A stretch of DNA of 64,000 nt. Source: Promethearchaeota archaeon. GTDB lineage: Archaea; Asgardarchaeota; Lokiarchaeia; Sigyniarchaeales; SOKP01. The stretch covers positions 1 through 64,000 of the forward strand of contig RDOE01000003.1 in NCBI GenBank assembly GCA_011364975.1, given 5' to 3'. Below, one piece after another: positions 4,147 through 52,969 of this stretch. The position numbers were made by a program, and so were the translations under genes. Under the pieces are notes generated by a model. That model had not been told where the DNA came from and did not search any database. It saw only the letters and a list, made by a program, of their open reading frames with translations. How positions within the stretch are numbered: the first letter of the stretch is position 1; each line of letters starts with the position of its first letter.

Positions 4147-4150
4147 TCTT

Positions 4151-5897: not shown

Positions 5898-5898
5898 A

Positions 5899-16231: not shown

Positions 16232-17164
16232 ATGGATGATTTGTTAAAGATTATTATAGCTGGGCTTGATAATGCTGGTAAAACCTCTATTTTAACGGCC
16301 TTAAACAAGAAATACGACTTCCACAAAGATATCGTTTCTCTCACTCCAACCATAAGAGTAGAATATCATGCTACTGAATTTTTAAAAAAAAAAGTTATTT
16401 TCTGGGATCTTGGAGGTCAAAAACAATACAGAGCCCTCTATGAAGAAAAGCAAGATCTATATTTTGCAGATACTGATTTACTGGTATATATCATTGATAT
16501 CCAAGATAAAGAACGTTATAACACCTCCCTTGAATATTTAGATATGATCTTACATCATTTCGATACACATAAGATGGATATTCCTCTTATCATAAGTTTC
16601 CATAAATTTGATCCAGAAATTCATGGAAATAATGACATTCTTTTTGAAATTGAAAAATTTAAATCAAAAATTAATAGGACTTACAATTCATTTAAGATTC
16701 TCTATCAACAAACCTCTATATATGATATTATTTCAATAGTACAATTAGTCTCTTATGGACTCTCGGTTTTTGATGATAAATTTTTCGCCCTTTCAGAGTT
16801 ATTAGAAGACTATCTTAATGAATTTGGCAGTAAATCCCTTATTTTATTTGATAAAAATGGAATTATAATTAGTGAATTTTACAGCGAGTTAATCGAACCT
16901 GAGATCTATTTAGAACTTATAGAATCAATTAAAGACCATTTATTTCTTCTTAAAAGAATGCAGGAAGAATCTTACGAGACTGAATATACGTTCTCTTCTA
17001 TTGGAGATGACTTAATTTCTTATTTACATAGAATTGAACTAAAAGGAGAATCTATTTTTGTATCTGTTATCATCAACGAACACCTTAAAGAACAATTCCT
17101 GATAAGATTTACAGATTTCATATCAGATTTAACAAGTATCTTAATTCCACTCTTAGTTTCTTGA
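16232..17164 (+). CDS. small GTPase (Arf/Rag-like) fused to a C-terminal roadblock/longin-like domain
   Basis: G1 GLDNAGKTS, G2 PT, G3 WDLGGQ, G4 HKFD, G5 TSIYD; C-terminal SLILFDKNGIIISEF. Confidence 0.85.
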   Translation: MDDLLKIIIAGLDNAGKTSILTALNKKYDFHKDIVSLTPTIRVEYHATEFLKKKVIFWDLGGQKQYRALYEEKQDLYFADTDLLVYIIDIQDKERYNTSLEYLDMILHHFDTHKMDIPLIISFHKFDPEIHGNNDILFEIEKFKSKINRTYNSFKILYQQTSIYDIISIVQLVSYGLSVFDDKFFALSELLEDYLNEFGSKSLILFDKNGIIISEFYSELIEPEIYLELIESIKDHLFLLKRMQEESYETEYTFSSIGDDLISYLHRIELKGESIFVSVIINEHLKEQFLIRFTDFISDLTSILIPLLVS

Positions 17165-24545: not shown

Positions 24546-25226
24546 TTATGCTAAAAATTTAAGGCCATCTTTTACTTTATAAGTACGATTAAAACGATCT
24601 ACTTCAATAAACCTTTTAATTTCAAGATTATTTAAGAGATCTCTCATTTCAATAGAACTTTTATTTAACTTCTCGGAAAGGCCTTCTATATCATTTTCAT
24701 AATTACGTAATACTACTAGTAGTGAAGAATAATTATCATATATTTGATTAACCAAATACTTTAACGATTCTTGTAGATTCTCACCAGTTCGGGTACTCGT
24801 TGGGAAGACCATTACATCATCTTTTAAATAATTCTGGGACCTAATTATCTCTGGATGGCGTGCCCCGGCTAAATCTTGTTTATTTGCAAGATATACAATT
24901 GGAGTCTCAGGTTCAATAGCTTTCCTAATCGCATTTAAAATTATTATTGCATCTTCATCCTTTTCTGGATGCACCGCATCGAAAATAAAAATAACCCCAT
25001 CAGTTCCTCTGATTAGCACGTCTCTCATGACGTTAAATCTTAATAATCCTGGAGTACCAAAAAGAAAGACATCAAACCCATTTAATTTAACACAACCGAG
25101 ATCCATACCAACGGTATAGTATTTGTTATCTCTTGCTTTGGCTTCTACATTTAACGCTTTATCATCAAGATATTTAATAAAACTTGATTTACCAGCTTGC
25201 AAAGCCCCGCTCACAACAATTTTCAA
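24546..25226 (-). CDS. small GTPase (MglA/ATP_bind_1-like) with C-terminal wHTH
   Basis: GALQAGKSS, TVGMDLG, LFGTPG (G3 without Asp), ANKQD; C-terminal LNNLEIKRFI..D....Y wing. Confidence 0.85.
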   Translation of the reverse strand: MKIVVSGALQAGKSSFIKYLDDKALNVEAKARDNKYYTVGMDLGCVKLNGFDVFLFGTPGLLRFNVMRDVLIRGTDGVIFIFDAVHPEKDEDAIIILNAIRKAIEPETPIVYLANKQDLAGARHPEIIRSQNYLKDDVMVFPTSTRTGENLQESLKYLVNQIYDNYSSLLVVLRNYENDIEGLSEKLNKSSIEMRDLLNNLEIKRFIEVDRFNRTYKVKDGLKFLA

Positions 25227-25521
25227 TGTAAAGACCTCTTTAATTAATTTCGTCGGATTCTAATTGTATTATATGGCTTATTATTAAATTATTAACTTAA
25301 TTTGTTTTATTATTATGATTAATATTTGGATAATATCAATTCCTAAATTTAAAAATAAGCTCTGACAATTTTGTTTTCTTTTTACGTACGACAAAAGATT
25401 GTTAGCGGTTGTGTGTACAAATCTTAATTTTTAAGTTTTAATGCTTAGAAATAAACATTTCTGACAAGAACATAATAAATGAGAAAATTCTTTTGAAATG
25501 TATTTTTTTTTAGCTTTAATA

Positions 25522-26184
25522 ATGGATAATTTAGAAAATCAATACCAAGATATCATAAAGCATTTTCCTAATGTTAAGCTTAATAATAATTTAATATCTC
25601 ATCTTTCAATTACCATAAAGAATGGAAACATTTTGGAAATTGATTATAGAAATTTTCCCAAAAAACCTAAAGTTAAACTACTCAATCAAAAGGGGGAGGT
25701 ATATAGAAAACTTGATAGGGTGATTTATTCCTTAAATACTTGGAAATCAAATCATCCTAAAAAAATCTCAGAAATAATCAATGAAATCATAATTTTTATT
25801 AACAATTTGGAATCTAACACTATTTTAATAAAAGCTGAATTATTAGAGGGAATTTTGCGTTTATGTCATGAACATCATCCAAGAGAAATCTTAGGAATTT
25901 TGAAAACGGAAAAAAATATTTTTACTGAATTCATTTTGCCTCCAGGCACACTTACTTCAAATACATCTGGGATATATTCTTCCTCTAGACTGCCATTAGA
26001 TAATTTTTATCAGGCAAGTGTTCATTCACATCCTTCTGGAAATCTTCGTCCCTCACCACAAGATTTAGGGGATATTTTTAAAAAGTTCAAATGTCATTTC
26101 ATAATAGGATTCCCTTATGGACCAAAAAATATAAGATGTTATGATAAAAATGGAAAAATACTAAACATTAAAGTTATAAAATAA
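25522..26184 (+). CDS. JAB/MPN+ (JAMM) metalloprotease with N-terminal UBC/UEV/RWD-like domain
   Basis: HPREILGIL and SVHSHPSGNLRPSPQD (E...HxH...S..D); N-terminal NFPKKPKV ... W..NHP..I..II.EI; start placed at MDNLEN. Confidence 0.8.
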   Translation: MDNLENQYQDIIKHFPNVKLNNNLISHLSITIKNGNILEIDYRNFPKKPKVKLLNQKGEVYRKLDRVIYSLNTWKSNHPKKISEIINEIIIFINNLESNTILIKAELLEGILRLCHEHHPREILGILKTEKNIFTEFILPPGTLTSNTSGIYSSSRLPLDNFYQASVHSHPSGNLRPSPQDLGDIFKKFKCHFIIGFPYGPKNIRCYDKNGKILNIKVIK

Positions 26185-26556
26185 TCCAACAGTAAGAAAT
26201 AATGCCAATTTTATTCTTTCTTATAAAGAATAAATTTTATTTTATCTCTATTAACAACGAAATTTTACTAAAATGAAAAAGTTATTTTTTTCAATTTTTT
26301 TTACCTTTTAAGATGAAAACTCAGTAATTATATTGTTTAATCTGATCTATATAGTAACTTTTAATGACATTTTTATGCTAAAAATTAACATAATCCGTCA
26401 TTTCAATAAATTTTAAATACTCTTTTAGGATTAGTTTACATTATAAAAGATATTATTACTAGATTTAACAATATACTTTTTTTTTAATTGTTAATTCTTA
26501 ACTCATGTAAATTTTTTAATAAAAATCAAACATAAATTTTTGAATTCAGAAAGAAA

Positions 26557-29500
26557 ATGTCGGAAAATAAGTTAAGTTCAATAATGATTATAGGAGCAGG
26601 TATTTCGGGGATTGAAGCAAGTTTATCGTTGGCAGAACAAGGTTATAAAGTGATACTTGTAGAAAGAACCTCCTCAGTTGGAGGTAGAATGGCACAACTA
26701 GACAAAACATTTCCTACTTTGGATTGTTCTATATGTATTCTCGCACCAAAAATGGTTGAAAGTAGTAGACATCCTAATATCGAACTTCTTCCTTATTCTG
26801 AAGTGGAAGAAATCAATGGTGAAGCAGGCAAATTTACCGTTAAAATAAAGAAGAAGGCTAAATACGTGAATTGGGATGTTTGCACTGGTTGTGGAGCCTG
26901 TAGTGAAAAATGCCCTATGAAAAAAATACCTTCCGAATTTGAAGAATCTATGGGAAATCGTACAGCAATATATATTCCATTTCCTCAAGCAGTTCCACGT
27001 AAAGCAGTGATAGATGCTAAAAAGTGTCTTTATCTAACGAAGGGAGCCTGTCAATTATGTGAAAAAGAATGTGAAGCTGGAGCGATAAATTGGGAGGATA
27101 AAGATGAATTAAAAACCTATGACGTTGCTTCTATTATCGTTGCTACTGGGTATGATCAACTTAATCCTTCTGTAATAGATAGATATCATTTTGAAGAATA
27201 TCCAAACGTTATAACTGCCATGCAATATGAGAGATTATTGAGTGCATCGGGCCCTACTGGAGGAGAACTAATACGTCCATCTGATAAAAAACATGCTCAT
27301 AATATAGCTTTTGTTGCATGTGTTGGATCTCGTAATGAGGATCTATGTGCATATTGTTCTAAATTTTGTTGCATGTATATGGCAAAAGAAGGAGTGGTAA
27401 CGAGAGAACATGCTCCAGAAACAGATGTACATATTTATTTCAATGATATTCGCGTTATTGGAAAAAATCAAGAAGAATTTATAGAGAGAGCAAAAGAAGA
27501 ATATGATTTACATTATCATCATGGAATCCCGGGGGATGTAAGAGAAAATCCGGAAAATCATAATTTGTACGTTAAATCAGCTAATTTAGATACAGGAGAA
27601 GTTGAAACAAGAGAATTTGACCTTGTAGTGTTAGCAAATGCCGTAAAACCAAGAGAAGATGCCGAACAGTTAGCTAAAATACTGGGAATTGAACGAAATG
27701 AATTAGGTTTTTTCAAAACAGATAATTCTACGGAAGACCTAAAATCTACTCGTGAGGGCATCTTCGTAACAGGATCATGTCAATCTCCTGATGATATTGC
27801 AAATTCTGTGGCTAAAGCAGGTGGAGCTGCAGCATTAGCTGCTACATATGCCGTTCCGTTAAGTGCGGAAGAGACTAAAGTAGAACTCCCACCATTAAGA
27901 GAAGTAAAACCTAGTGATGCACCTAAGATAGGTGTGTTCATATGTAGATGCGGGATAAACATCGGAGGATATATGGACATTCCCAATTTAGTTGATTATG
28001 CTAAGTCATTACCTCACGTTGCCTTTGCGATGGAAAACAAATATAGTTGTTCCCAATTAACACAAGATATTATTAAAGAAAAGATATCCGAGCTAGATTT
28101 GAATAGGGTTGTTGTTGCGGCATGTACTCCACGAACCCATGAACCGTTATTCCAGAAAACTATCAGGGAGGCAGGACTAAACGAATATTTATTCAATTTT
28201 GTCAGTATTCGTGAATTAGATTCATGGGTACATATGCATGACAATCCTAGAGCTACAGATAAAGCGAAAGACCTTATTAGAATGGGTGTTGCTCGAGTAA
28301 GTAATCAAAAACCAGAGTATAAAATTAAAGGAAAGGTCGTTCCAGAGGCTCTGGTGGTAGGTGGAGGAATCTCAGGAATAAGTGCCGCAATTGAAATTGC
28401 AAATAAAGGCTTTAAAGTGCATCTTGTTGAACAAACCGATAAATTAGGGGGTCAATTAAATTTAATCTACAAAATCAATTTTGACCGTATTGATTCAAAA
28501 CAATTCTTAGAAGGAACATTAAAGCAATATAATCAAATGAAGAACATCATCACTTACTTAAATTCGAATGTCTTGGATGTTAAAGGATCCATTGGAGATT
28601 TTAAAGTTAAAGTCAAAAATAAAATTGAAAACAAAGAATTCGATTTAAATGTGGGTACAATTATCACTGCGACAGGTGCTTATGAATATAAGCCCAAAGG
28701 GTGGTACCATTATGGAGAGAATGAGAATGTAATGACTCAATTAGAACTTTCAGAAAAGCTAAGAAAAAATGAGCTAAAAGATGGTGAGACGTTTGTTTTC
28801 ATACATTGTGTTGGGTCTAGACAACCAGAAGGTGGTAACGGAGTAACATATTGTTCCTTAATCTGCTGTTCTGAATCGATCAGACATGCTTTATATGTTA
28901 AAGAGAATTACCCTAATTCAAATCTTTACGTATTATATCGAGATATTCGCGTAGGAACAGACGAAGAACCTTATTACTGGAAAGCTCGGGAAAATATTAA
29001 CTATATACGATTTAATGATTATCCCACTGTTGATATCAAAAATGGAAAACTAATGGTAAATGTAAAAGATATATTAACACAAGTCGATCTTAATATTGAA
29101 GCAGATAAAGTAATATTATCCACTCCATTAATTCCAAATGACACCCAAAAGTTAGGAGAGATGATCAAATGTGCAAGAGACCAAAACGGGTTTTTCTTAG
29201 AAGCACATATTAAATTGCGACCTGTTGATTTTGCAACAGACGGAATATATTTATCAGGTACCTGCCATGGCCCAAAAGGAATCGCAGATTCTATTTCTCA
29301 AGGACGAGCCGCTGCAGCGCATGCGTTAATTCCCCTAATTTCAGGAGAAGTTGAAAATGAACCACTAGTATCAGTTGTAAACTCTGCATTATGCATTGCA
29401 TGTCAGAAGTGTGAAGAAGTGTGTAATTTTGGTGCTATTGGAGTCAACTTTGATAACGAAATATTAGTATCTGAATCTAATCCATTACTTTGTAAAGGTT

Positions 29501-30054
29501 GTGGAGATTGTGCTGCCGCTTGTCCTGCAGGAGCAATTACTATGAGTCATTTTGCTGATGAGCAAATTACTCCCATGATCCGGGAAGCTGTAAAAGGTGA
29601 TTTTGTTGATGAAAGACCTCGTATTGTAGCGTTCTTATGCAATTGGTGTAGTTATGCCGGAGCCGATACTTGTGGAGTAAGTAGGTTTCAATATCCTACC
29701 AATATAAGACCCATCAGAGTCATGTGTACAGGTAGAATTCCAAAAAGTTTCATTTTACAGGCATTTCTGGAAGGTGCAGACGGTGTTTTTGTTGGGGGTT
29801 GTCATATTGGCGATTGTCATTATTTAGAAGGGAATTATGATATGTTAAGACGATATAATGAAGTTCATGAAATCTTAGAAAAGGTAGGAATTAATCGAGA
29901 GAGATATCGATTAGAATGGGTTTCAGCAAGTGAGGGAAAGCGATTTTCTCAAGTTGTTACTGAGTTTGTAGATAAAGTAAAAGAGTTAGGTCCTATGCCA
30001 AAAACAGGAGATAGAATTGAACCTAAAAAAGAAAAAGTTAAGGAGAGTGCATAA
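26557..30054 (+). CDS. hdrA: large heterodisulfide reductase subunit A (two FAD modules) fused to MvhD
   Basis: GAGISG...GGRMAQLDKTFPTLDCS, ferredoxin CxxCxxCxxxCP motifs, IGVFICRCG, second GGGISG, EAHIKLRPVD, C-terminal FLCNWCSYAGAD...RVMCTGR...GCHIGDCHY (MvhD). Confidence 0.95.
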   Translation: MSENKLSSIMIIGAGISGIEASLSLAEQGYKVILVERTSSVGGRMAQLDKTFPTLDCSICILAPKMVESSRHPNIELLPYSEVEEINGEAGKFTVKIKKKAKYVNWDVCTGCGACSEKCPMKKIPSEFEESMGNRTAIYIPFPQAVPRKAVIDAKKCLYLTKGACQLCEKECEAGAINWEDKDELKTYDVASIIVATGYDQLNPSVIDRYHFEEYPNVITAMQYERLLSASGPTGGELIRPSDKKHAHNIAFVACVGSRNEDLCAYCSKFCCMYMAKEGVVTREHAPETDVHIYFNDIRVIGKNQEEFIERAKEEYDLHYHHGIPGDVRENPENHNLYVKSANLDTGEVETREFDLVVLANAVKPREDAEQLAKILGIERNELGFFKTDNSTEDLKSTREGIFVTGSCQSPDDIANSVAKAGGAAALAATYAVPLSAEETKVELPPLREVKPSDAPKIGVFICRCGINIGGYMDIPNLVDYAKSLPHVAFAMENKYSCSQLTQDIIKEKISELDLNRVVVAACTPRTHEPLFQKTIREAGLNEYLFNFVSIRELDSWVHMHDNPRATDKAKDLIRMGVARVSNQKPEYKIKGKVVPEALVVGGGISGISAAIEIANKGFKVHLVEQTDKLGGQLNLIYKINFDRIDSKQFLEGTLKQYNQMKNIITYLNSNVLDVKGSIGDFKVKVKNKIENKEFDLNVGTIITATGAYEYKPKGWYHYGENENVMTQLELSEKLRKNELKDGETFVFIHCVGSRQPEGGNGVTYCSLICCSESIRHALYVKENYPNSNLYVLYRDIRVGTDEEPYYWKARENINYIRFNDYPTVDIKNGKLMVNVKDILTQVDLNIEADKVILSTPLIPNDTQKLGEMIKCARDQNGFFLEAHIKLRPVDFATDGIYLSGTCHGPKGIADSISQGRAAAAHALIPLISGEVENEPLVSVVNSALCIACQKCEEVCNFGAIGVNFDNEILVSESNPLLCKGCGDCAAACPAGAITMSHFADEQITPMIREAVKGDFVDERPRIVAFLCNWCSYAGADTCGVSRFQYPTNIRPIRVMCTGRIPKSFILQAFLEGADGVFVGGCHIGDCHYLEGNYDMLRRYNEVHEILEKVGINRERYRLEWVSASEGKRFSQVVTEFVDKVKELGPMPKTGDRIEPKKEKVKESA

Positions 30055-30057
30055 AAA

Positions 30058-30591
30058 GTGACTGAGATGTTAAAGAAAAATGCGGATAATTTAGATCATT
30101 CATTTAGATATGAAATAAGTGCAAAAGTTGGGGCTAAATCACTTCTTAAATGCATTCAGTGCGGTGTTTGTAGTAGTGGTTGTACTGTGACTGAATATGT
30201 AGACTTACAACCCCATAGAGTCGTTGCTTCGTGTCTTTTAGGCTTAAAAGAGGAAGTGTTATCCAGTAATGCAATTTGGACTTGTTCATTGTGCCATAGA
30301 TGTACTGAGAGATGCCCTAAAAACGTTGATTATTCCTTTATTTTAGCGTTATTAAGAAATTTGGCAGTAAAGGAAGGAAAAATTCCGAAAGAATACTCAA
30401 GTACTGTGGTCACTATCTATAATAATGGATATGTTGTTCCATATACGGGGGGATTGAAAGATAATATTGATAGACGACGAGGAAAAATGGGATTACCAGA
30501 ATTAGTCCCCCCGGACCTCAAAGAGATTCAATTTATAATTGAAGAAACAGGTCTTGGGGCTCTTGCAAAAGAAAAGGAGGATGATAAATAA
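30058..30591 (+). CDS. hdrC: heterodisulfide reductase subunit C
   Basis: CIQCGVCSSGC and IWTCSLCHRCTERCP, LRNLA. Confidence 0.93.
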   Translation: MTEMLKKNADNLDHSFRYEISAKVGAKSLLKCIQCGVCSSGCTVTEYVDLQPHRVVASCLLGLKEEVLSSNAIWTCSLCHRCTERCPKNVDYSFILALLRNLAVKEGKIPKEYSSTVVTIYNNGYVVPYTGGLKDNIDRRRGKMGLPELVPPDLKEIQFIIEETGLGALAKEKEDDK

Positions 30592-31478
30592 TGAAAAAAG
30601 AATTGGGATTTTTTATTGGATGCACAATACCGCTTAAATTACCTCATTTAGAAAAGGCTTTTAGGGATGTAGCAAATATATTAGGCTTGAAACTTAGGGA
30701 AATGGAAGGTGTTAGCTGCTGCCCAGAACCAGTTTCTCTTCAATCATTAAATATGGATACTTGGGTAACCTTAGGGGCTAGAAATTTAGCTATCGCTGAA
30801 AAGATGGGTGTAGACATTTTAACCATATGTTCTGGGTGTTATGAAACGTTAAAGACAGTAAGTGTATTACTAAAGGAGGATAAAGAATATCTGAAGAAGA
30901 TAAATACAATTTTGAATAAAATCAATTACAAATATACTGGTAAAACTAAAGTATATCACTTTGTAGAATTATTTAGTGAACCTGAATGGTTAGAAAAGAT
31001 AAAAAGTTTAGTAGTAAAGCCACTAGATGATTTGAATTTAGCAGTTCATTACGGTTGCCATTTGGTTAGACCAAGTAAAATCATGCAATTCGATCACCCT
31101 GAAAAACCAGAGAAAATTGATGTCATTCTTCAAGCGCTTGGTGCTAAAACGCTAGATTTTGCCAATAAACTTGAATGTTGTGGATACTGTGCTAGATTAC
31201 AAGAGGAGATTGGTGAAAAATTGGTTGAAGATAAAATGACGGAATTATGTGAGCTTGAGGAAGGAGTAGATGGGTTGATTGCAGTCTGTCCTGCTTGTGT
31301 TACACAATATGATAGAAAAGAGAAAATTATAGCAAGAAAATCCGGTAAAGAGTTAGATATCCCTGTACTCTATTTAGCAGAAATGATGGCAGTAGCACTA
31401 GGTGTAGAATTAGAAGATCTAAGTTTAAAAAATAGAAGTGTAAAACCCGATAAGTTAATTGAGAAATTAACATCCTAA
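30591..31478 (+). CDS. hdrB: heterodisulfide reductase subunit B
   Basis: FIGC, SCCP, CSGC, HYGCH, CCG, CPAC CCG-domain motifs. Confidence 0.93.
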   Translation: MKKELGFFIGCTIPLKLPHLEKAFRDVANILGLKLREMEGVSCCPEPVSLQSLNMDTWVTLGARNLAIAEKMGVDILTICSGCYETLKTVSVLLKEDKEYLKKINTILNKINYKYTGKTKVYHFVELFSEPEWLEKIKSLVVKPLDDLNLAVHYGCHLVRPSKIMQFDHPEKPEKIDVILQALGAKTLDFANKLECCGYCARLQEEIGEKLVEDKMTELCELEEGVDGLIAVCPACVTQYDRKEKIIARKSGKELDIPVLYLAEMMAVALGVELEDLSLKNRSVKPDKLIEKLTS

Positions 31479-31570
31479 GAAGTGTATTTTTTTTCAAAAC
31501 ACAAATTAAGATTAAATTAATGAATCAAAACAAAAAAATGAAAGAAATTTGAAAAAAGGAGTTATGTAAT

Positions 31571-32269
31571 ATGATTATTACTCAACAAAAAGATATAAAC
31601 GAAATTTACGAGATGGTAAAAAACTACAAAAAAATTTTAATTGCTGGCTGTGATGGATGTTGTCAACCACCTCGCTCTTTAAATGAAGCTAAAGTACTTG
31701 GGCAGCTTTTGGAATTAAAGGCGAGAACTGAAGGGAAGGAGTTAAAATGGAAAGCTATAACAGTTCTAAGGCAATGTGATGATAGAATAGCGGCTACTAC
31801 TGTAAGTCCCCATATTGAGAATTACGATGCTATTGTATCATTAGCTTGTGGTCTTGGAGTAGTGATGTTAAATAAGGTATTGCCAAAAATTTTGACTTTT
31901 CCTGCTCAAAATAGCATGTTTGGAGGAGCCCAAAATAGTGGTGAAAATAGCTTTATTGAATACTGCGAGGAATGTGGTGATTGTATAATTGGAGAAACCG
32001 GTGGAGTTTGTCCGAGAGCAGGGTGTGCTAAACATCTTAGCAACGGACCCTGTGGAGGGATGGTAGATGGAAAGTGTGAAGTTGGTGGATATACTATTCC
32101 TTGTGCCTGGGTACAAATGTGGACTAGATTAAAAGAATTTAATAGGCTAGACTTATTTAAGAAATATCGAGGCCCTAGAGATTATCGTACTTCAACCAGC
32201 CCAAGTTACTTAACAATCTATAAAGAATATACTAATGAAAAAGAAGAGAAGGTGGAGGCGAAAGAATAA
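31571..32269 (+). CDS. metV: methylenetetrahydrofolate reductase Fe-S/Zn subunit MetV, copy 1
   Basis: GCDGC, RQCD, LACGLG, CEECGDC...TGGVCP...CAK.LSNGPCGG...KCEV...CAW. Confidence 0.88.
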   Translation: MIITQQKDINEIYEMVKNYKKILIAGCDGCCQPPRSLNEAKVLGQLLELKARTEGKELKWKAITVLRQCDDRIAATTVSPHIENYDAIVSLACGLGVVMLNKVLPKILTFPAQNSMFGGAQNSGENSFIEYCEECGDCIIGETGGVCPRAGCAKHLSNGPCGGMVDGKCEVGGYTIPCAWVQMWTRLKEFNRLDLFKKYRGPRDYRTSTSPSYLTIYKEYTNEKEEKVEAKE

Positions 32270-32270
32270 A

Positions 32271-33224
32271 ATGACTAAAAGACCGGCATATAGTAAATTA
32301 TGCAAAGCTATCGAAGATGGTCATTTCGTATTCACTGGAGAACTTGAGCCTAAAAAAATCTTGGATCTTAGTGAGATTTTTCATTCTGCTGAAGAAATGA
32401 AGAAAACAGGCAAAATTGTCGCAGCTAACGTGACCGACGGACCACAAGGAGATGCATATATGTCATCATTAGTCCCGAGTTATCTTATTCAAGATAAGGT
32501 AGGTATTGAAGCGGTTTGGCAAGTTACCGTTCGAGATCGTAATCGTGTAGCCTTATTTGGAGATGTAGTCGCAGGTTCGGTTTTAGGTTTAAAGAACATC
32601 TTAACGCTTACCGGAGATCATACAGCTTTGGGTGATCATAAAAAAGGACGTCCAGTTTACGATATTGATAGCACTCAATTCTGTGAAATGCTTTCCAAGA
32701 TGATTGATGAAGGAACTGATTATGAAGGTAATCCTCTTGAAGGGGGAAAAATTGAAATGAACTTTGGATGCGTAGCCAACCCAAATAGCAACCCAAGGGA
32801 ACCAGAAATTTTTAAAGTAGGCCGTAAAGTCGAACAAGGAGTAGATTTCATTCAAACCCAAACTGCTTTTGACATAGATCAAGCAAAAGAATTTCTTAAG
32901 GAATTAGAGCAATTCAATGTTCCCGTATTACTAGGAGTGTTTCCTCTCAAATCTTATGGTATAGCCTGGTATTTTGATGCTTACATACCTGGAGTTTCAG
33001 TTCCTAAGGATTTATTAGGGGCCTTAAAGAAAGCTGAAAAAGATAACAAGGGAGATAAACAGGCAAAATATGATGCCCTCGATAAGATCAATATTGAATT
33101 TTTCGAACCATTTATCAAAGAAATCAAGAAAAGTACGAAAGCAGCGGGGATTCATTGCATGGCAGTTGAATACGAAAGACTTTTTGATCCTTTACTTAGA
33201 GAATATCCGAAATACGTCAAGTAA
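32271..33224 (+). CDS. metF: methylenetetrahydrofolate reductase flavoprotein MetF, copy 1
   Basis: TGELEP, ANVTD, QVTVRDRNR, LTGDH, FIQTQ, GIHCM; start placed at MTKRP after GGAGG. Confidence 0.92.
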   Translation: MTKRPAYSKLCKAIEDGHFVFTGELEPKKILDLSEIFHSAEEMKKTGKIVAANVTDGPQGDAYMSSLVPSYLIQDKVGIEAVWQVTVRDRNRVALFGDVVAGSVLGLKNILTLTGDHTALGDHKKGRPVYDIDSTQFCEMLSKMIDEGTDYEGNPLEGGKIEMNFGCVANPNSNPREPEIFKVGRKVEQGVDFIQTQTAFDIDQAKEFLKELEQFNVPVLLGVFPLKSYGIAWYFDAYIPGVSVPKDLLGALKKAEKDNKGDKQAKYDALDKINIEFFEPFIKEIKKSTKAAGIHCMAVEYERLFDPLLREYPKYVK

Positions 33225-33322
33225 ATTTCTTTAAAACAAAAAAATCTGAGAAAAAATATATTTTTAATTTTTATTTAACATTTTTTTAAAAAAAAAGAAT
33301 AAAAGAAGGAGTATGTAAAAAT

Positions 33323-33796
33323 ATGAAAAATTTAGATGATAAAGATAAACGAATTTTAGAAATGCTTATAGAAGATTCAAGAAGAGCCTACAAAGAAATA
33401 GCTGATCAATTATCTAATGAAGGTATGGCATTATCAGAGTCAACCGTTAGAAAGCGTGTAATCAAATTACAAGAGGATGGTGTAATCGAAAAGTTTACGA
33501 TTAAAGTTTGTAGGGAGGATGAAAGATGTATTATAGCATTTCTTACTTTAATCCCAAAGTCCGAATCGGAGATTAAAGAATTATTACGAGAAACCCAGAT
33601 TCTTCCACAATGTGATGAAGTTTATTTTCTTGCTGGACAATGTGGGATATTATTAAAAGTTCAAGTCCCAGAAATTACAGAATTAGATGCAGTTATTGAG
33701 AATTTCCGTGGACGAAGTGACGTAAAAAGCGTTGAAAGAGTATGTGTAGTTCTTAAATCATTAAAAGAATCTAAAGATAGTCGTGTACCTCTATAA
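33323..33796 (+). CDS. Lrp/AsnC family transcriptional regulator
   Basis: LDDKDKRIL, SESTVRKRV..L...GVIEKFT. Confidence 0.92.
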   Translation: MKNLDDKDKRILEMLIEDSRRAYKEIADQLSNEGMALSESTVRKRVIKLQEDGVIEKFTIKVCREDERCIIAFLTLIPKSESEIKELLRETQILPQCDEVYFLAGQCGILLKVQVPEITELDAVIENFRGRSDVKSVERVCVVLKSLKESKDSRVPL

Positions 33797-33818
33797 CGTA
33801 ATCTCTATTTAAGAGATA

Positions 33819-34841
33819 TTAGCTCTGATAATACAATTTTCCATCTTTTAAATGTTTCTGAACAATGCCTTTATCCTCAAGATATAATAAATGGCCTACT
33901 ACCTCACTAAGAGCCATATAAGAATTAATATCATCCATATCATTTCCAAAATGAATTCTAGCTATTTCAAAAGGTGTTTTCGGTGCGTTTTTTATTACTT
34001 CTGATATTTCTTTTAATCTTATTCTATGATGCTCCTTGATTTCTTGTATTCTTTCATGGGGATTATAAATTATTTCTTGGTGCGCGGGAAATATAATTTT
34101 TGGATTTAATCTATCTATTATATCCAAGGAATTAAGATATTGATCTAATACATTATTGAAGTTATACTCTTTATATTGTTCATATAAGAATTTCGGCACG
34201 ATAAAATTACCTATGTGAGGAGTAATTCGACTCAGAATATGATCTCCGGAAAATAAATACTTTCTACTGGTATCGAATATACAAATATGGCCAAAACTAT
34301 GTCCTGGAGTCCAAATTACTTCTAAGTTGTTTAATATCTTATCACCATTATGCACAATAATATCTGGCTTTTCAAATATTCTTAATTTTGGCCAGTAAGT
34401 AAAGTATTGTATGATTCTTTGTCGATCCTCTTCAGTAAGTCCATATCTTTTCATCTGATAAGACATCTCAATAGCTTGTTTTTCAATTTCCGGAAGTTTT
34501 GCTTTATCTGTTTCCCAACTTAAGACTTGCTGGGTAATATCGTGCATTATTATTTTAGTGTTTGGGCTTTTGCGCCTTAAAGTTTTAATCAATCCAATAT
34601 GATCTAAATGATGATGTGTAATAATACAGTAATCAATATCTTCCGCCTTAAATCCAAGGCTATGAAGTTCAGAAAAAAATAAATTAATCCAATTTGCATT
34701 ATTCAATCCGGCATCAATCAAAACATTCTTCCCTTCTACTTCAACTATATATAGTCTTGTGAATTTTACAGGAAAAGGGACATCGATTTTAATTTGGAAG
34801 ATATCCTCAATCTGCGCTGATTCAGAGGTAATTTTTACCAT
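33819..34841 (-). CDS. metallo-beta-lactamase-fold hydrolase with C-terminal wHTH
   Basis: THHHLDHIG, TPGHS, SGDH, PAH. Confidence 0.92.
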   Translation of the reverse strand: MVKITSESAQIEDIFQIKIDVPFPVKFTRLYIVEVEGKNVLIDAGLNNANWINLFFSELHSLGFKAEDIDYCIITHHHLDHIGLIKTLRRKSPNTKIIMHDITQQVLSWETDKAKLPEIEKQAIEMSYQMKRYGLTEEDRQRIIQYFTYWPKLRIFEKPDIIVHNGDKILNNLEVIWTPGHSFGHICIFDTSRKYLFSGDHILSRITPHIGNFIVPKFLYEQYKEYNFNNVLDQYLNSLDIIDRLNPKIIFPAHQEIIYNPHERIQEIKEHHRIRLKEISEVIKNAPKTPFEIARIHFGNDMDDINSYMALSEVVGHLLYLEDKGIVQKHLKDGKLYYQS

Positions 34842-34958
34842 AGTAATTTCCTTACTTAATCAAATATCCTTTATTAAGAAAAATGAGCTCTGTATATTTA
34901 TTTTATGGTTATTAACCAATATTCTAATTGATATTATCAATACAACCAAAATAGTCTC

Positions 34959-36146
34959 TTATTGGGGATAAATACCTTCTTCTTCACGGGTTGAAACCAT
35001 TGCTAGGAAATTCTCCAATTTAACTGATGGATTGATGCTATGCCCAGAACTAAATATATATCCACCCCCAGGTCCTAAAGCTCTTATTAGCTTCTTAGAA
35101 TATTCTTTGATAAAAATGGGTTCTTTATCTGCTAAATCTTGAGGAGAAACGTTTCCGATAAAAGTTACATCATTTCCATATCGTTCATGCAATTTAAAAA
35201 TATCATATTTTGGGTTAGCTGTTGTGGGTTCAATAGGATGAATTGCATCAAACCCTACTTTTACTAAATCACCAAAAATAGGTTCTAAATCTCCGCAGCT
35301 GTGAAATAGGACATTAATACCTTTAGAATGACAATAATTGCAAAGTTTTTCGTACCAAGGAAACAAGATCTCCTTATAGTTATTAGGATTTGTTAGTAAT
35401 CCTGATTTAAAGCCAAGGTCATCAAATAACATAATTGCTGTTGATTCGCCCCATTCAATCAATCTTTTAGCTAATTCTAGTGCGAAATTTCCATATTTAT
35501 CGATGACCTTTTTTGCGAATTTTTTTCCAATTAATAATTTGCTAAACTGAGTAAACCCAAATGCTTGCCATGATGATTCAAAAATGCCCCATATAGTTGG
35601 TATAACCGCGATATTTCCTTCAAATTCCTTTTCTACCTTTTTCATCATGTCATAAATACGTTTTCTTCTTGGGTTGTCGGGATCGAGCAAAGAAAATTTC
35701 TCAAAATCTTCGAAACTTTTAAAATAACCATCTTTGTAATATGCTATGTCCATATTATCTGATGGATTTTTTTTCAAATCGAAAATCCTACCATATTCAT
35801 CAATAAATCCCTCCTTCATACAGAAAGTTGGAAAGAAGATATAGCCAGATAAAGGAATTTGAGCCAAATCAATTCCTATCTTAGAAAAAAGACCAAGATA
35901 TTGTTTTATGGTGTTTTTTAGATATGATCGGGATTCAGTAGCAGCTAATATGGTGTTAGTGAACTCATCAATTATTCCCCTACAAAGGTTATACGTATCT
36001 GCAAAACTCTTTGCCATACCTTGTAAATAGTAACCTTCAGAATAATGATCACAGATTTTTAAATTATCTATGGATAATTCGAACCAGGGAATCTTATCCG
36101 GTTCTTCATGATCTAGTTCTCTTAAAACTCTATCCCTAGCTTTCAT
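34959..36146 (-). CDS. uroporphyrinogen decarboxylase / MtaA-CmuA methyltransferase family protein
   Basis: RDRV...L.HEEPD.IP, DDLG, FHSCG, GNV, GGGYIFSSGHSI. Confidence 0.85.
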   Translation of the reverse strand: MKARDRVLRELDHEEPDKIPWFELSIDNLKICDHYSEGYYLQGMAKSFADTYNLCRGIIDEFTNTILAATESRSYLKNTIKQYLGLFSKIGIDLAQIPLSGYIFFPTFCMKEGFIDEYGRIFDLKKNPSDNMDIAYYKDGYFKSFEDFEKFSLLDPDNPRRKRIYDMMKKVEKEFEGNIAVIPTIWGIFESSWQAFGFTQFSKLLIGKKFAKKVIDKYGNFALELAKRLIEWGESTAIMLFDDLGFKSGLLTNPNNYKEILFPWYEKLCNYCHSKGINVLFHSCGDLEPIFGDLVKVGFDAIHPIEPTTANPKYDIFKLHERYGNDVTFIGNVSPQDLADKEPIFIKEYSKKLIRALGPGGGYIFSSGHSINPSVKLENFLAMVSTREEEGIYPQ

Positions 36147-41734: not shown

Positions 41735-42400
41735 ATGACCATTATAACAACAAAAAAACCTTTTGAGGAGGTTTTAGGAGCCATCAAGAATGCAAAGAGA
41801 TTAACGATCGTATCTTGTGGATCCTGTGCAGCGATGTGTCAAACCGGAGGAACAGAAGGAGCGAAAGAGATGGCTGATAAGCTTGAGAAAGAGGGTTTTC
41901 AAATCACTACAGTTATTGTTCCAGAGGAAGTATGCGATAATCGTGTTATGAAGCAAGATTTCCGTAAAATTGAAGAAGATCTAGAAAATACCGACGCTAT
42001 CTTAACTTTAAGTTGTGGTCTTGGCGTAGCTAGCATAACAGAAGTGCTAAGTAAAAAGTTTCCGAATATTCCAGTATTTATTGGCACCAACACGGAGTTT
42101 ATGGGCATGACGGAGCGCATCGGAAGATTTTTTATGCGTTGTCGAGGGTGTGGTGATTGTCTTCTCAATGAAACTGGAGGAATTTGTCCTATTACAACTT
42201 GTGCGAAATCTCTCATGAATGGGCCCTGCGGTGGTATGGTAGATGGAAAATGTGAGGTTGGAAAGTACGAAAAAGATTGTGGCTGGATTTTAATTTATAA
42301 TCGATTGAAAGAATTAGGCCGATTAGATTTTTTCGAAAAATTAAGAGACCCAGTTGATTGGAGCGAATCTGGGCATCAAAGAGAAGTAGTATGGAGGTAG
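41735..42400 (+). CDS. metV: MetV, copy 2
   Basis: SCGSC, VCD, SCGLG, CRGCGDC...TGGICP...CAKSLMNGPCGG...KCEV...CGW. Confidence 0.88.
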   Translation: MTIITTKKPFEEVLGAIKNAKRLTIVSCGSCAAMCQTGGTEGAKEMADKLEKEGFQITTVIVPEEVCDNRVMKQDFRKIEEDLENTDAILTLSCGLGVASITEVLSKKFPNIPVFIGTNTEFMGMTERIGRFFMRCRGCGDCLLNETGGICPITTCAKSLMNGPCGGMVDGKCEVGKYEKDCGWILIYNRLKELGRLDFFEKLRDPVDWSESGHQREVVWR

Positions 42401-42408
42401 ATAAAAAA

Positions 42409-43347
42409 ATGGGAGAAAAAAAGTTTTTTTCTAAGTTGGGAGAAGCTTTATCTAAAGGAGACTTTATTCTCACTGGTGAATTAGAACCAGAAAAAACTAC
42501 TGATCTTAGCCATACAGTCGAAGAAGCTAGAGAAATGGCTCCTTATGTTGTTGCCGCTAATGTTACTGACAGCCCCTTAGGAATTGTGACTATAAATAGT
42601 ATGGCTGCATCTCATATTATTCAGAGTGAAACTGGGCTAGAATGCATCTGGCAATTGACTGTTAGAGATGTAAATAAGTTAGGAATTGTGGGCATGCTTA
42701 TGGGGGGTCATGCGTTAGGATTGAGAAACATTCTTTCTCTTACTGGGGATCATACAGCGTTAGGTGATATGCCTGAATCCAAACCAGTATTTGATCTCGA
42801 TTCAGCCACCTTAGTTAAGCTCGTACGAGAGGTGGTTGATAAAGGAACAATTAACGGTCATGAGATAGAGCATCCTCCCACCATTCATGTGGGGGCTGCT
42901 GCGAATCCCAATGCTAATCCAATGGATGCAGAGGTATTAAAAATAAAAAGAAAGGCACAAGCAGGAGCTGAATTTTTACAAACTCAAGTGGTATATGACC
43001 TAGATAAAACTATCGAATTTTTATCCGCAATAAAAAAGTATAATGTTCCTATTTTACTTGGAATCTTCCCAATGAAAAGCTATGCAATTGCCAAAGGTTT
43101 TGATGAGTTTGTCCCCGGTGTAAGTGTCCCAAAAGATATATTAGCTCGATGGAAGGGTATTAAAAACGATTACTCTACTGACAAGAAAATGATGAATGAA
43201 GTTTATGACCAAGCAAATTATGAATTTTTCAAACCATTTATTACGGAGCTAAGAAAGAAAAAACTTCTCGATGGAATCCATTGTATGGCGGTTCATTACC
43301 CTAGAATCTTTCCCAAGTTGACGGAAGTAATCAAAAATACTAATTAA
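42409..43347 (+). CDS. metF: MetF, copy 2
   Basis: TGELEP, ANVTDSP, QLTVRD, LTGDH, FLQTQ, GIHCM; start placed at MGEKK after GGAGGT. Confidence 0.92.
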   Translation: MGEKKFFSKLGEALSKGDFILTGELEPEKTTDLSHTVEEAREMAPYVVAANVTDSPLGIVTINSMAASHIIQSETGLECIWQLTVRDVNKLGIVGMLMGGHALGLRNILSLTGDHTALGDMPESKPVFDLDSATLVKLVREVVDKGTINGHEIEHPPTIHVGAAANPNANPMDAEVLKIKRKAQAGAEFLQTQVVYDLDKTIEFLSAIKKYNVPILLGIFPMKSYAIAKGFDEFVPGVSVPKDILARWKGIKNDYSTDKKMMNEVYDQANYEFFKPFITELRKKKLLDGIHCMAVHYPRIFPKLTEVIKNTN

Positions 43348-52360: not shown

Positions 52361-52969
52361 TTGTCATTATTTAGCATGATAATTGATCATTTGACTCAAT
52401 CAATCCAATTAAAGATTTGTTATTTTGGACCAGCTCTATCTGGAAAAACTACTTCGATTAAAGCGCTTTTTAATCATTTTGGAATAGAAGAAAGAGTATT
52501 ATGTATTGAAAGTAGTGTAAATCGTACCCTTTTCTTTGATTATGGAACAATAACTTTTGAAAATCAAAAATGGCTGCTCAAACTTCATCTTTATTCAACA
52601 ACCGGACAAGACTTTTATATAATTACAAGACCAACCACTCTAAAAGCATTAGATGGCATGATTTTTGTCATCGATTCCCAAGAAGATGCGTATTATCGAA
52701 ATTTGACTTCATGGTATGAGTTATATAATTACTTTGAGGATGAGCTCATTAATTTACCAAAAGTTTTTGCTTTTAACAAGCAAGATTTATTTGATTTATT
52801 TGAACCTTCCCTTTTCTTAGAAAATATCAATTATTTTAAACTTAATAATCTATTAATTAACAACACAATTGCAATTGAGGGGGAGGGCATTCTAAACTGC
52901 TTTGAAGATTTACTATCCCTGATCTTTAACAATTTAAATAAAACACCATTAGCTACGCTACCTACTTAA
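52361..52969 (+). CDS. MglA-like small GTPase
   Basis: KICYFGPALSGKTT, RTLFFD, STTGQ, NKQDL as in MglA family. Confidence 0.85.
   Translation: MSLFSMIIDHLTQSIQLKICYFGPALSGKTTSIKALFNHFGIEERVLCIESSVNRTLFFDYGTITFENQKWLLKLHLYSTTGQDFYIITRPTTLKALDGMIFVIDSQEDAYYRNLTSWYELYNYFEDELINLPKVFAFNKQDLFDLFEPSLFLENINYFKLNNLLINNTIAIEGEGILNCFEDLLSLIFNNLNKTPLATLPT

Follow-up and report, generated by a model that had tools for sequence, protein, structure and literature searches.

The Hdr-type ('6S') MTHFR of acetogens, MetFV-HdrABC-MvhD, was reportedly described by Mock in 2014. In Moorella its genes are reported as one transcription unit. The complex is attributed to Moorella thermoacetica and Sporomusa ovata (Yi 2021, Kremp 2022), and pull-downs in Sporomusa show that MetVF binds Hdr/MvhD in this bacterial counterpart (Kremp 2022). 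A stand-alone '2S-type' MetFV, dependent on reduced ferredoxin, is described for Clostridium ljungdahlii (Yi 2021). [quoted passage not shown]

The window analysed here is a stretch of 64,000 nucleotides from a Promethearchaeota archaeon (contig RDOE01000003.1) whose genome is 99% complete. Inspection of its ORFs and raw sequence at positions 26557-33224 of the + strand reveals five co-oriented genes encoding an HdrA-MvhD fusion, HdrC, HdrB, MetV and MetF (Table 1). The identities and gaps given for these genes in an earlier note on this DNA, and the resemblance it saw in them to the MetFV-HdrABC-MvhD system of acetogens, are borne out by the ORFs and by Pfam and PDB matches: hdrA-mvhD and hdrC are 3 nt apart, hdrC and hdrB overlap by 1 nt, and gaps of 92 nt and 1 nt precede metV and metF, respectively. 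The metF ORF spans 32235-33224, and its first ATG past the metV stop, at 32271, has GGTGGAGG just 5' of it. In the 1165-aa protein, Pfam recognizes Rossmann/FAD domains at aa 7-102 and 598-737, 4Fe-4S at aa 940-996 and a FlpD/MvhD domain at aa 1023-1145 (177 bits, cut-off 22.3), with no match to a Fer4_20/GltD-type domain. Methanogen Hdr chains in the PDB match HdrA, MvhD, HdrB and HdrC of the window; the two 4Fe-4S motifs characteristic of HdrC are present, and HdrB has two CCG stretches (83 bits, cut-off 20.6), the cysteines of both being visible in the alignment to 8RVU_b. MetV1 falls in the MetV family DUF5981 (96.5 bits, cut-off 23) and has 13 invariant or near-invariant Cys among 50 sequences, while a PDB sequence search found no solved structure for any MetV relative. 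MetF1 is a member of the MTHFR family (88.8 bits, cut-off 24) and aligns with Thermus MTHFR 1V93 (E 5e-7) at the Glu and Asp motif positions of the family.

Table 1. Features of the Hdr-metVF locus and of the second metV-metF pair in the window
Feature	Position	Strand	Basis or remark
hdrA-mvhD (1165 aa)	26557-30054	+	predicted tandem single-chain HdrA + MvhD; Pfam, PDB matches
HdrA half 1 (aa 1-445)	26557-27891	+	5ODC_A 146-513 aligns to aa 9-381
HdrA half 2 (aa 454-1008)	27916-29580	+	aligned to 5ODC_A
MvhD domain, [2Fe-2S] type (aa 1020-1147)	29614-29997	+	PDB MvhD chains, E 1e-47 to 1e-53
hdrC (177 aa, GTG start)	30058-30591	+	Pfam Fer4_8/Fer4_17; 7BKB_C, E 3e-22
hdrB (295 aa)	30591-31478	+	two CCG domains; 8RVU_b, E 5.5e-71
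hdrB-metV spacer (92 nt)	31479-31570	+	T8 run at 31487-31494
metV1 (232 aa), Fe-S/Zn subunit	31571-32269	+	Pfam DUF5981
metF1 (317 aa), MTHFR-family catalytic subunit	32271-33224	+	Pfam MTHFR; Thermus MTHFR match
Lrp/AsnC-type regulator, directly 3' of metF	33323-33796	+	Pfam
metV2, metF2 (Hdr-free pair)	41735-42400, 42409-43347 (metF2 ATG 42409)	+	2S-type candidate

The earlier identification of the first gene as an HdrA-MvhD fusion holds, and can be refined: judged from its sequence, HdrA is a single-chain pseudo-dimer (a tandem, double HdrA) without GltD. Half 1 consists of a thioredoxin-reductase-like FAD domain with an inserted 2x[4Fe-4S] ferredoxin domain and lacks the N-terminal domain. 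Half 2, in which aa 454-620 correspond to 5ODC_A 2-168 and aa 874-1008 to 512-646, has the N-terminal [4Fe-4S] domain, the FAD domain and, ahead of MvhD, the C-terminal ferredoxin domain, but shows an 80-aa alignment gap at the expected place of the inserted ferredoxin domain. Hand-counted along the printed alignment, C57/C60 of half 1 are equivalent to Cys194/Cys197 of 5ODC_A and E225/K277 to E356/K409, and all four residues are invariant in 65/65 full-length relatives. At the corresponding positions of half 2, Cys197 is replaced by E or Q, E356 by S (56/65) and K409 by R (54/65). The E356/K409 signature, which marks a bifurcating HdrA flavin by the criterion of Kremp 2022, is hence kept in half 1 and missing from half 2. 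At least 120 clusters of ~1160 aa with 77-92% identity to HdrA-MvhD are labelled Promethearchaeota or Lokiarchaeota.

The adjacency of the Hdr and met genes is conserved. An Hdr-family gene lies directly 5' of metV-metF in 80/80 related Promethearchaeota loci, which are kin rather than independent (MetF1 identity 69-95%), and a second family of the class has the full cluster in one genome (G004) and hdrA-mvhD-metVF in another (G006). Such conserved linkage shows that the adjacency is not due to chance. hdrB adjoins metV in 66 of the 80 loci, 55 having the complete hdrA-C-B-metV-metF and 11 the same order cut by a contig end. The other 14 loci have an MvhD-ending protein directly 5' of metV, without hdrCB and at 18-40 nt (86 nt in L051). 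In two of these 14 the upstream protein is apparently GltD/NfnB-like: a domain scan of L088 identifies a GltD-like-Fd-MvhD protein in place of HdrA, and the tblastn pattern of L089 probably reflects the same replacement. What every variant keeps is a C-terminal unit of ferredoxin and MvhD adjoining metV. The Lrp/AsnC gene 3' of metF is kept in 75/80 related loci; this gene, the tandem HdrA and a second metV-metF pair at 41735-43347 were not listed in the earlier note.

A MetV-Hdr interface is also predicted. The complex model of HdrA 930-1165 with MetV1 scored 0.69 (runs 0.69, 0.71 and 0.67) compared to 0.00 for the best of three controls, the mark being reached by 58/80 solved complexes and 2/110 mismatched pairs, a calibration that is approximate here, where own alignments were used. 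The runs have at least 95% of contacts in common, with a partner pLDDT of at least 87. Since solved structures were found for none of the MetV relatives, the score is unlikely to derive from a memorized complex of this kind. According to the model, MetV would dock on the ferredoxin-MvhD end of HdrA, with the invariant MetV motif around C27-C31 facing the ferredoxin domain of HdrA at its Cys motifs.

The 'operon' of the earlier note is a candidate transcription unit, a reading tempered by the spacer between hdrB and metV. Here the T8 run is flanked by GTGT/ACAC and followed first by a stretch rich in A and then by a GGAG ribosome site. Within 30 nt past the hdrB stop, a run of at least five T is found in 66/67 spacers of relatives versus 152/462 in the genome control, and one of at least six T in 59/67 versus 91/462. 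This conserved oligo-T run suggests that transcription may stop or attenuate ahead of metV, the spacer possibly being an archaeal terminator or attenuator combined with a separate metVF promoter.

No hydrogenase, Fdh or GltD-like module was found among the scanned ORFs of at least 90 aa in the window, as had been claimed, and no NiFe large subunit on its contig; the matches in the genome lie on contigs C119 and C180. Eleven loci of the genome carry an MvhD, and two NiFe hydrogenases are encoded outside the window's contig. To call the electron partner unknown may be misleading, as it is probably MetFV itself that plugs into MvhD. The second pair, MetVF2, lies 9.5 kb downstream of the cluster without Hdr genes (MetF1/MetF2 45% and MetV1/MetV2 41% identical). 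In one genus (4/4 genomes) MetVF2 provides the only MetF while Ftr is present and Mer absent, and MetVF1-Hdr is therefore not the sole candidate for the Mer step.

The genome of the window encodes Ftr, Mch, Mtd, CofH (F420 synthesis) and CdhC (CODH/ACS), while the best match to Mer (TIGR03555), at 66 bits, falls short of the cut-off of 348.7 and Fhs was not found. Among 60 genomes of its own family, 59 have Ftr and 52 a MetF1-type gene, and none has Mer over the cut-off or Fhs. With Mer and Fhs missing and the other functions in place, the MetVF enzyme probably reduces methylene-H4MPT, and we infer that H4MPT rather than H4F is the pterin. A quick tree places MetF1 in an archaeal clade with Bathyarchaeia, apart from bacterial MetFV-type rows. 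MetF1 as a true Mer was rejected, as it belongs to another family than TIGR03555; the claim is that it stands in for Mer. At about -320 mV, methylene-H4MPT is poorly suited as the high-potential acceptor when electrons from H2 or NADH are to be bifurcated.

The cluster is best described as a putative archaeal variant of the Hdr-type MTHFR known from Moorella and Sporomusa. On balance, and by a modest preference, we read it as an archaeal Hdr-type methylene-tetrahydropterin reductase that most likely supplies the Mer step in this genome, which has the H4MPT methyl branch and CODH/ACS but no Mer. MetF1, the flavin subunit, is predicted to interconvert methylene- and methyl-pterin, while MetV1, the Fe-S subunit, would wire it to the C-terminal ferredoxin-MvhD end of the pseudo-dimeric HdrA. 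The half-1 flavin, with its bifurcation signature and inserted ferredoxin domain, would then join three arms: MetFV/pterin via MvhD, a disulfide-type substrate at HdrBC, and ferredoxin. MetFV would thus occupy the place of the MvhAG hydrogenase of methanogens, and the enzyme would supply the step which Mer performs there. The interpretation in the earlier note, with its possible coupling to bifurcation or confurcation, gains from the conserved adjacency, the modelled interface, the E/K residues of half 1 and the absence of Mer; as with the pterin, it is by inference that we arrive at bifurcation or confurcation, the substrate of HdrBC and the reaction direction. The account in Kremp 2022 of a bacterial complex never purified intact counts against this reading, as do the missing signature in half 2, the potential of methylene-H4MPT, the second, Hdr-free MetVF pair and the oligo-T run ahead of metV. 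Were it correct, the Hdr-linked MetVF would probably supply the sole missing step in carbon fixation, a step that thereby becomes testable.

A possible but doubtful alternative is an acetogen-like, Hdr-coupled methylene-tetrahydrofolate reductase serving an H4F C1 pool, as in the catabolism of serine, glycine and histidine or in methionine supply, with the Mer step carried out by MetVF2 or another enzyme. FolD in the genome and SHMT in the window make an H4F pool possible, and the co-occurrence of true Mer and the cluster in G004 and G006 implies that the cluster does more than merely substitute for Mer. The genus with MetVF2 only, Ftr and no Mer points the same way, as do the characterised MetFV enzymes treated in Yi 2021, which all use H4F. 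Yet Fhs is lacking in all 60 own-family genomes, MetF1 groups with Bathyarchaeia and not with the bacterial rows, the clade may have shifted to H4MPT (Chadwick 2022), and an H4MPT branch complete save for Mer needs some reductase.

Tight linkage need not mean a complex: hdrACB and metVF-lrp may be separate transcription units, MetVF1 alone acting as a reduced-ferredoxin-dependent 2S-type enzyme and HdrABC serving another donor, e.g. MvhAG elsewhere. This would agree with the oligo-T run in the 92-nt spacer, with the 11 loci carrying MvhD and the two NiFe hydrogenases that the genome encodes elsewhere, with the sufficiency of ferredoxin for 2S-type MetFV (Yi 2021) and with the looseness of the Sporomusa complex (Kremp 2022). 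We nevertheless judge it improbable, given adjacency in 80/80 loci over 69-95% MetF1 identity and two families, the ferredoxin-MvhD protein kept 18-40 nt from metV in the variants, the modelled interface (0.69 versus 0.00 in controls) and a free MetVF2 already there for a stand-alone role. A complex may also form without bifurcation, HdrA-MvhD being a plain wire from ferredoxin or an HdrBC thiol to MetFV. Non-bifurcating HdrA homologues are known (Kremp 2022, citing Appel 2021), and the absence of HdrBC in 14/80 loci and the apparent replacement of HdrA by a GltD-like NAD(P)H module in 2/80 (one scanned) indicate that the three-arm design is dispensable. However, the E/K signature and inserted ferredoxin domain of half 1 are invariant and both HdrB CCG motifs keep their cysteines, which makes such a wire very unlikely.

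Like the Hdr-type MTHFR of Moorella and Sporomusa, the locus encodes six functional parts side by side on a single strand, metV preceding metF, and has an HdrA enlarged by a second thioredoxin-reductase-like domain (Chadwick 2022, Kremp 2022). The E/K signature in only one of two flavin domains is shared with S. ovata (Kremp 2022), and the complementary loss of Cys197 and the N-terminal domain between the halves with Moorella HdrA (Chadwick 2022). In contrast to both, HdrA and MvhD form one fused protein, which reduces the genes from six to five, the order is hdrA-C-B rather than hdrCBA-mvhD, and half 1 retains the inserted ferredoxin domain, which is reported to be missing from the HdrA-like C-terminal part in Sporomusa and Moorella (Kremp 2022). 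The GltD/NAD(P)H domain of Moorella is lacking, and the tandem HdrA is nearer the Sporomusa than the Moorella architecture. The host also differs, having an H4MPT methyl branch without Mer or Fhs and a MetF1 that groups with Bathyarchaeia. MetV and MetF form a core common to the window and the 2S-type; MetVF2 has the gene arrangement of the latter, whereas MetVF1 is linked to Hdr or MvhD throughout and shares only 41-45% identity with MetVF2.

HdrA, HdrB, HdrC and MvhD have clear homologues in the methanogen MvhAGD-HdrABC (5ODC, 7BKB, 8RVU), the CCG cysteines, Cys194/197 motif, N-terminal domain and both ferredoxin domains each being present once. While methanogen HdrA is a homodimer, the single polypeptide here has only one set of arms, and MetVF takes the position of MvhAG, which does not adjoin the cluster. 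As in the archaea treated in Chadwick 2022, the Mer-less host has an H4MPT branch and a MetV-MetF pair. In ANME-1, MetFV is not placed beside Hdr in that work, whereas the Hdr linkage here is tight (80/80 loci), and beyond the clusters it describes the locus offers a defined tandem HdrA-MvhD fusion together with HdrCB.

The cluster at 26557-33224 of the plus strand comprises hdrA-mvhD, hdrC, hdrB, metV and metF (see table), and both the five genes and their spacing, as claimed in the earlier note, are borne out by the ORF listing and the raw sequence. The Pfam assignments of all five proteins lie well above the curated cut-offs, and the identities of HdrA, MvhD, HdrB and HdrC are confirmed by sequence matches to solved methanogen Hdr-Mvh complexes. 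MetF of this Hdr-linked pair (MetF1) is only a distant relative of the solved MTHFRs (best E 5e-7), and neither a sequence nor a fold search of the PDB turned up a solved relative for MetV (MetV1). The closest homologues of the cluster proteins carry the source names Promethearchaeota or Lokiarchaeota, which, together with the Arf/Ras/RagA-like GTPases encoded in the window, marks the organism as a Loki-type Asgard archaeon. The assembly holding the window amounts to 3.74 Mb in 200 contigs and is 99% complete, with 6% contamination.

Genes of the Hdr-linked metVF locus, and segments of the HdrA-MvhD protein with their equivalents in the methanogen structure 5ODC
Feature	Position	Strand	Assignment
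hdrA-mvhD	26557-30054	+	Pfam FlpD/MvhD, FAD/Rossmann, 4Fe-4S
hdrC	30058-30591	+	Pfam Fer4_8/17
hdrB	30591-31478	+	Pfam: two CCG stretches
metV	31571-32269	+	Pfam DUF5981 (MetV family)
metF	32271-33224	+	Pfam MTHFR
Lrp/AsnC gene	33323-33796		Pfam; downstream of metF
HdrA segment	aa 9-381		5ODC HdrA 146-513; flavin domain with inserted ferredoxin domain
HdrA segment	aa 454-620		5ODC HdrA 2-168; N-terminal cluster domain
HdrA segment	aa 874-1008		5ODC HdrA 512-646; C-terminal ferredoxin domain
HdrA-MvhD segment	aa 1020-1147		MvhD

For the 1165-aa HdrA-MvhD protein, the homologues include at least 120 cluster representatives, about 1160 aa long and 77-92% identical, and MetF1 shows a similar pattern (84-94% identity). 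A scan of species-representative genomes yielded 80 related loci, all in MAGs labelled Promethearchaeota, other Asgard names or 'uncultured archaeon', and HdrA and MetF are highly conserved across the loci examined (77-95% identity). The Hdr-metVF adjacency is kept in these relatives, an Hdr-family gene standing directly upstream of metV in 80/80 loci by tblastn with the window's proteins, a count which, like the others over these loci, shows conservation rather than independent events because the loci are kin. The full order hdrA-hdrC-hdrB-metV-metF is present in 55/80 and the same order, cut by a contig end, in 11/80, and an Lrp/AsnC gene follows metF in 75/80. An Arf-like gene occurs near the cluster in 47/80.

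The other 14 loci lack hdrCB and have a gene ending in MvhD directly before metV. Two of them are contig-cut, one (L051) has a single tandem hdrA, and nine (L076, L077, L078, L080, L083, L085, L090, L092 and L093) have two successive tandem-hdrA sets, at about 30-7260. In both of the loci examined for this, L076 and L080, TAA stops break the first set into three ORFs of about 431, 555 and 256 aa; selenocysteine in the relatives' HdrA was accordingly rejected, the in-frame stops of L080 being TAA gene borders. One MAG, bin22, holds a complete-type cluster as well as a contig-cut locus with the MvhD end directly upstream of metV (L047 and L082). The last two of the 14, L088 and L089, carry a 910-aa protein matching HdrA at its ferredoxin-MvhD end only. 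In L088 (4545-7277) the place of HdrA-C-B is taken by a GltD/NfnB-like module (Fer4_20 + Pyr_redox_2) in front of a ferredoxin domain and MvhD, and the identical hit pattern of the L089 protein indicates that it is probably of the same type. This arrangement points to a version of the MetVF enzyme that is linked to NAD(P)H. PEPCK lies upstream in L051 and L088, as in the window, and the variants therefore look like positional equivalents. Common to every variant is a C-terminal ferredoxin and MvhD unit beside metV.

The relationships of MetF were assessed in a quick tree with SH-aLRT support only. Its 60 rows comprise 13 of the 80 MetF1 loci, the paralogues and those of the library representatives P0242-P0299 with a length of 270-345 aa, fusions and fragments excluded. 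MetF1 from the Hdr-linked loci groups in a single clade (SH-aLRT 99) that takes in the sequence of G004, a genome of another family. The hdrCB-less and GltD variants nest within this clade beside a complete-type locus, and module loss or replacement therefore looks derived. MetF1, the MetF2 of a second, Hdr-free pair in the window and a Bathyarchaeota/Hecatellales representative form a clade to which none of the 32 bacterial-type rows, a Clostridioides protein among them, belongs. In the class sample of 71 genomes at least 85% complete, 60 of them in the window's family, a MetF1-type gene (at least 66% identity) is present in 52 of these 60, and G004 has one with 62% identity. One genus (4/4 genomes) has the MetF2 type only, with no Hdr nearby in the three genomes examined. 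Across 161 phylum-level genomes the MetF1 type is confined to the window's family, apart from a lone 74% match, which sits on a contig of 2.6 kb. In other Asgard families MetF is present once (43-52% identity), and 101 of the 161 gave no match at E ≤ 1e-60. Among 12 metF loci from other families, hdrA is directly downstream of metF in one, 3-6 kb off on the opposite strand in four and not found within the fetched stretch in seven. Tight linkage thus characterises the MetF1 clade in Lokiarchaeia. At one locus of another Asgard family (L101, G093:C12:46000-57000), an hdrA homologue (51% identity, residues 2-603) comes immediately after metV-metF, which is a different way of joining the same parts.

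The second pair, metV2-metF2 (41735-43347, plus strand), lies 9.5 kb downstream of the cluster without Hdr neighbours, shares 41% (MetV) and 45% (MetF) identity with the Hdr-linked one, and is flanked by a PAS histidine kinase gene and a dihydrolipoamide-dehydrogenase-like gene (45129-46655). In L083 and L092 a MetVF2 pair is likewise found, about 6-7 kb downstream of MetVF1. The window also encodes a RagA/Gtr1-like and two Arf/Ras-like GTPases (16232-17164, plus; 24546-25226, minus; 52361-52969, plus), of the eukaryote-signature type typical of Asgard archaea, together with a serine hydroxymethyltransferase (10863-12191), an FmdE-family protein (3040-3567) and a URO-D/MtaA-like protein (34959-36146), all three on the minus strand. 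A link of the cluster to the URO-D/MtaA-like gene was rejected, as this gene is present in 0/80 loci and, when only loci whose sequence extends 3.2 kb or more past metF are counted, in 0/56. The genome as a whole is unusually rich in MvhD/Hdr loci, and three of its 11 MvhD/FlpD matches, with two in-frame TGA each (C145:9717-10085, C69:3869-4237 and C149:49119-49487), are candidate selenocysteine-containing VhuD-like proteins.

Judged from its alignment to 5ODC, HdrA is a single-chain pseudo-dimer of two HdrA-like halves (half 1, aa 1-445; half 2, aa 454-1008), which were aligned together with 65 full-length relatives. Half 1 retains C57/C60, the Cys194/Cys197 pair of 5ODC HdrA, in 65/65 sequences, and E225/K277 also in 65/65. 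The latter are E356/K409 by counting along the 5ODC alignment, the residues marking bifurcating HdrA flavins according to Kremp et al. 2022, citing Appel 2021. In half 2 the alignment shows an 80-aa gap in place of the inserted ferredoxin domain; this half has E or Q at the Cys197 position, S at the E356 position in 56/65 (E in 9) and R at the K409 position in 54/65 (K in 10). The complementary losses, of the N-terminal domain in half 1 and of Cys197 in half 2, match the account that Chadwick 2022 gives of tandem HdrAs, among them the MetFV-associated HdrA of Moorella.

The contact between MetV and the Hdr proteins, which the earlier note had left to multimer structure prediction, was modelled with HdrA 930-1165 (ferredoxin domain and MvhD) and MetV1, using an HdrA alignment of 45 rows (A2, the window and 44 of 71 usable loci) and a MetV1 alignment of 50 rows (A1, the window and 49 of 80 loci). 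An interface is predicted with a score of 0.69 (runs 0.69, 0.71 and 0.67) vs 0.00 for the best of three controls. In calibration, 58 of 80 solved complexes attained 0.69, as did 2 of 110 mismatched pairs; these counts are only rough here because own alignments were used. The runs have at least 95% of contacts in common, and the partner pLDDT is at least 87. On the MetV side the predicted interface takes in residues 8-66, with the invariant G26-C27-D28-G29-C30 and the nearly invariant C31; on the other it takes in chain residues 16-22 and 60-63, i.e. HdrA 945-951 and 989-992 (the ferredoxin-domain Cys motifs), and MvhD residues 133-142 and 177-183. The model supports binding of MetV1 to the ferredoxin-MvhD end of HdrA, and, as the PDB holds no MetV relative, the score is unlikely to reflect a similar complex already known to the predictor. 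Pull-downs in Sporomusa linked MetV and MetF with HdrA, HdrB and MvhD (Kremp 2022). The AlphaFold model of MetV itself has a mean pLDDT of 68.6, with a confident N-domain (aa 1-116) and a poor Cys-rich C-half. An MvhD-like fold of this N-domain is unsupported, the PDB fold search returning generic alpha/beta folds (best E 4.6e-4, TM 0.31) and no Hdr or Mvh chain among the matches to the MetV model.

Within the cluster, hdrA/hdrC/hdrB are packed (3-nt gap, 1-nt overlap), as are metV/metF (1-nt gap). The 92-nt hdrB-metV spacer (31479-31570) opens with a T8 run (31487-31494) flanked by GTGT and ACAC. A run of at least five T no more than 30 nt from the hdrB stop is found in 66/67 homologous spacers and one of at least six T in 59/67, compared to 152/462 and 91/462, respectively, of the co-directional gaps of 40-150 nt taken as genome control. 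The run is kept although the remainder of the spacer has diverged; GTGT...ACAC forms a small inverted repeat around it, and inverted repeats of at least 4 nt occur there in 27/67 spacers. The hdrCB-less variants have a gap of 18-40 nt to metV, except L051 (86 nt, with a similar T-run). Oligo-T is the archaeal termination signal, so it is possible that metVF-lrp is transcribed from a separate promoter or that attenuation of hdrACB transcripts takes place at the spacer. The datasets holding 26557-33224 are 20 DNA contigs (sediment, estuary, mangrove and soil metagenomes), with no RNA set among them, and an Rfam search over 25000-35000 returned only a chance-level match (E 0.13, under the gathering score) and no riboswitch or known RNA in the spacers. 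The functional linkage of hdr and metVF is well supported; the operon status of the locus is unproven.

The window's genome contains Ftr, Mch, Mtd, CofH (F420 synthesis), CdhC of CODH/ACS and FolD, as well as two NiFe hydrogenase large subunits on contigs other than that of the window. Neither Fhs nor Mer, the F420-dependent methylene-H4MPT reductase of methanogens, was found in it, the best match to Mer reaching 66 bits vs a cut-off of 348.7. Mer is above cut-off in 4/71 class genomes and in 0/60 of the window's family, while Ftr is present in 67/71 and 59/60, respectively. Fhs occurs in 5/71, all from a sister family that includes a closed 4.36-Mb genome without Ftr and with only a distant stand-alone MetVF. 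This pattern agrees with Zhang et al. 2025, who describe cultured Loki strains as having part of an H4F branch in place of the H4MPT one. [quoted passage not shown] This replacement of Mer is limited as a reading because G004 and G006 have a true Mer together with the Hdr-metVF cluster, and because the genus with MetF2 only implies that the Hdr-linked pair is not indispensable.

In the favoured mechanism, MetF1 would interconvert methylene and methyl pterin, with MetV1 as the electron carrier into or out of the ferredoxin-MvhD end of HdrA. The flavin of half 1 would join this MetFV arm with HdrBC and, via the inserted ferredoxin domain, with ferredoxin; the CCG clusters of HdrB are intact by sequence comparison. 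MetFV would take the place held by MvhAG in methanogens, and a search of the window for another donor gene would be superfluous. The methylene/methyl-H4MPT couple, at about -320 mV, lies midway between CoM-S-S-CoB (about -140 mV) and ferredoxin (about -500 mV), and reversible bifurcation or confurcation would thus be allowed. The H4F couple lies at -200 mV, and with H4F as the pterin an acetogen-type scheme would apply instead. The pterin used, the HdrBC substrate and the physiological direction of MetVF1-Hdr are all inferred here, and Asgard heterodisulfide substrates are called 'unidentified' by Valentin-Alvarado et al. 2024. A bolder reading, which we consider rather improbable, is that MetF1V1-HdrA(MvhD)BC is the methylene-H4MPT reductase of Mer-less archaea, working as a reversible three-way bifurcase with the methyl-/methylene-H4MPT couple at middle potential, in Lokiarchaeia and, by extension, in the ANME-1/Bathyarchaeia-type MetF clade. 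Electrons from methyl-H4MPT would then be split to the disulfide at HdrBC and to ferredoxin; working acetogenically, the enzyme would confurcate ferredoxin and a thiol onto methylene-H4MPT. On MvhD, MetFV would slot in directly where the MvhAG hydrogenase otherwise sits, and the lineage variants (two tandem HdrA genes; the GltD-like-MvhD protein) would represent naturally occurring exchanges of the third arm.

Several major uncultured groups of archaea combine an H4MPT Wood-Ljungdahl methyl branch with the lack of Mer: ANME-1, Bathyarchaeia and, as seen here, most of one Lokiarchaeia family. Two questions meet in the cluster: by what route such Mer-less archaea reduce or oxidise at the methylene/methyl level, and whether this step conserves energy; and how the bacterial Hdr-type MTHFR works. 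The compact five-gene version with single-chain HdrA, the natural swaps and the predicted MetV docking site make the question directly testable. The cluster is not surprising to specialists, yet it is a compact, conserved and testable system for both questions, and it bears on the models of Asgard energy metabolism (hydrogen-dependent acetogenesis vs syntrophic oxidation) used in eukaryote-origin scenarios.

Hdr-type MTHFR is known from two bacteria (Yi 2021, Kremp 2022). MetFV-HdrA-MvhD clusters have been noted in Syntrophoarchaeum, and Asgard MetF has been put in an ANME-1-type clade (Chadwick 2022). No description of an hdr-metVF cluster in Asgard archaea was found in the literature searched, and subscription papers and supplements may have one. 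The 942-aa HdrA of Sporomusa is nearer in domain order to the window's HdrA than is the Moorella protein, which has 1487 aa and a GltD insert (Kremp 2022), whereas Pfam finds no GltD-type domain in the window's HdrA. Unlike in both bacterial systems, MvhD is fused to HdrA in the window. New relative to the known Hdr-type MTHFR are thus the archaeal, Mer-less H4MPT setting, the single-chain HdrA-MvhD with the ferredoxin-exit domain kept, and the natural module swaps.
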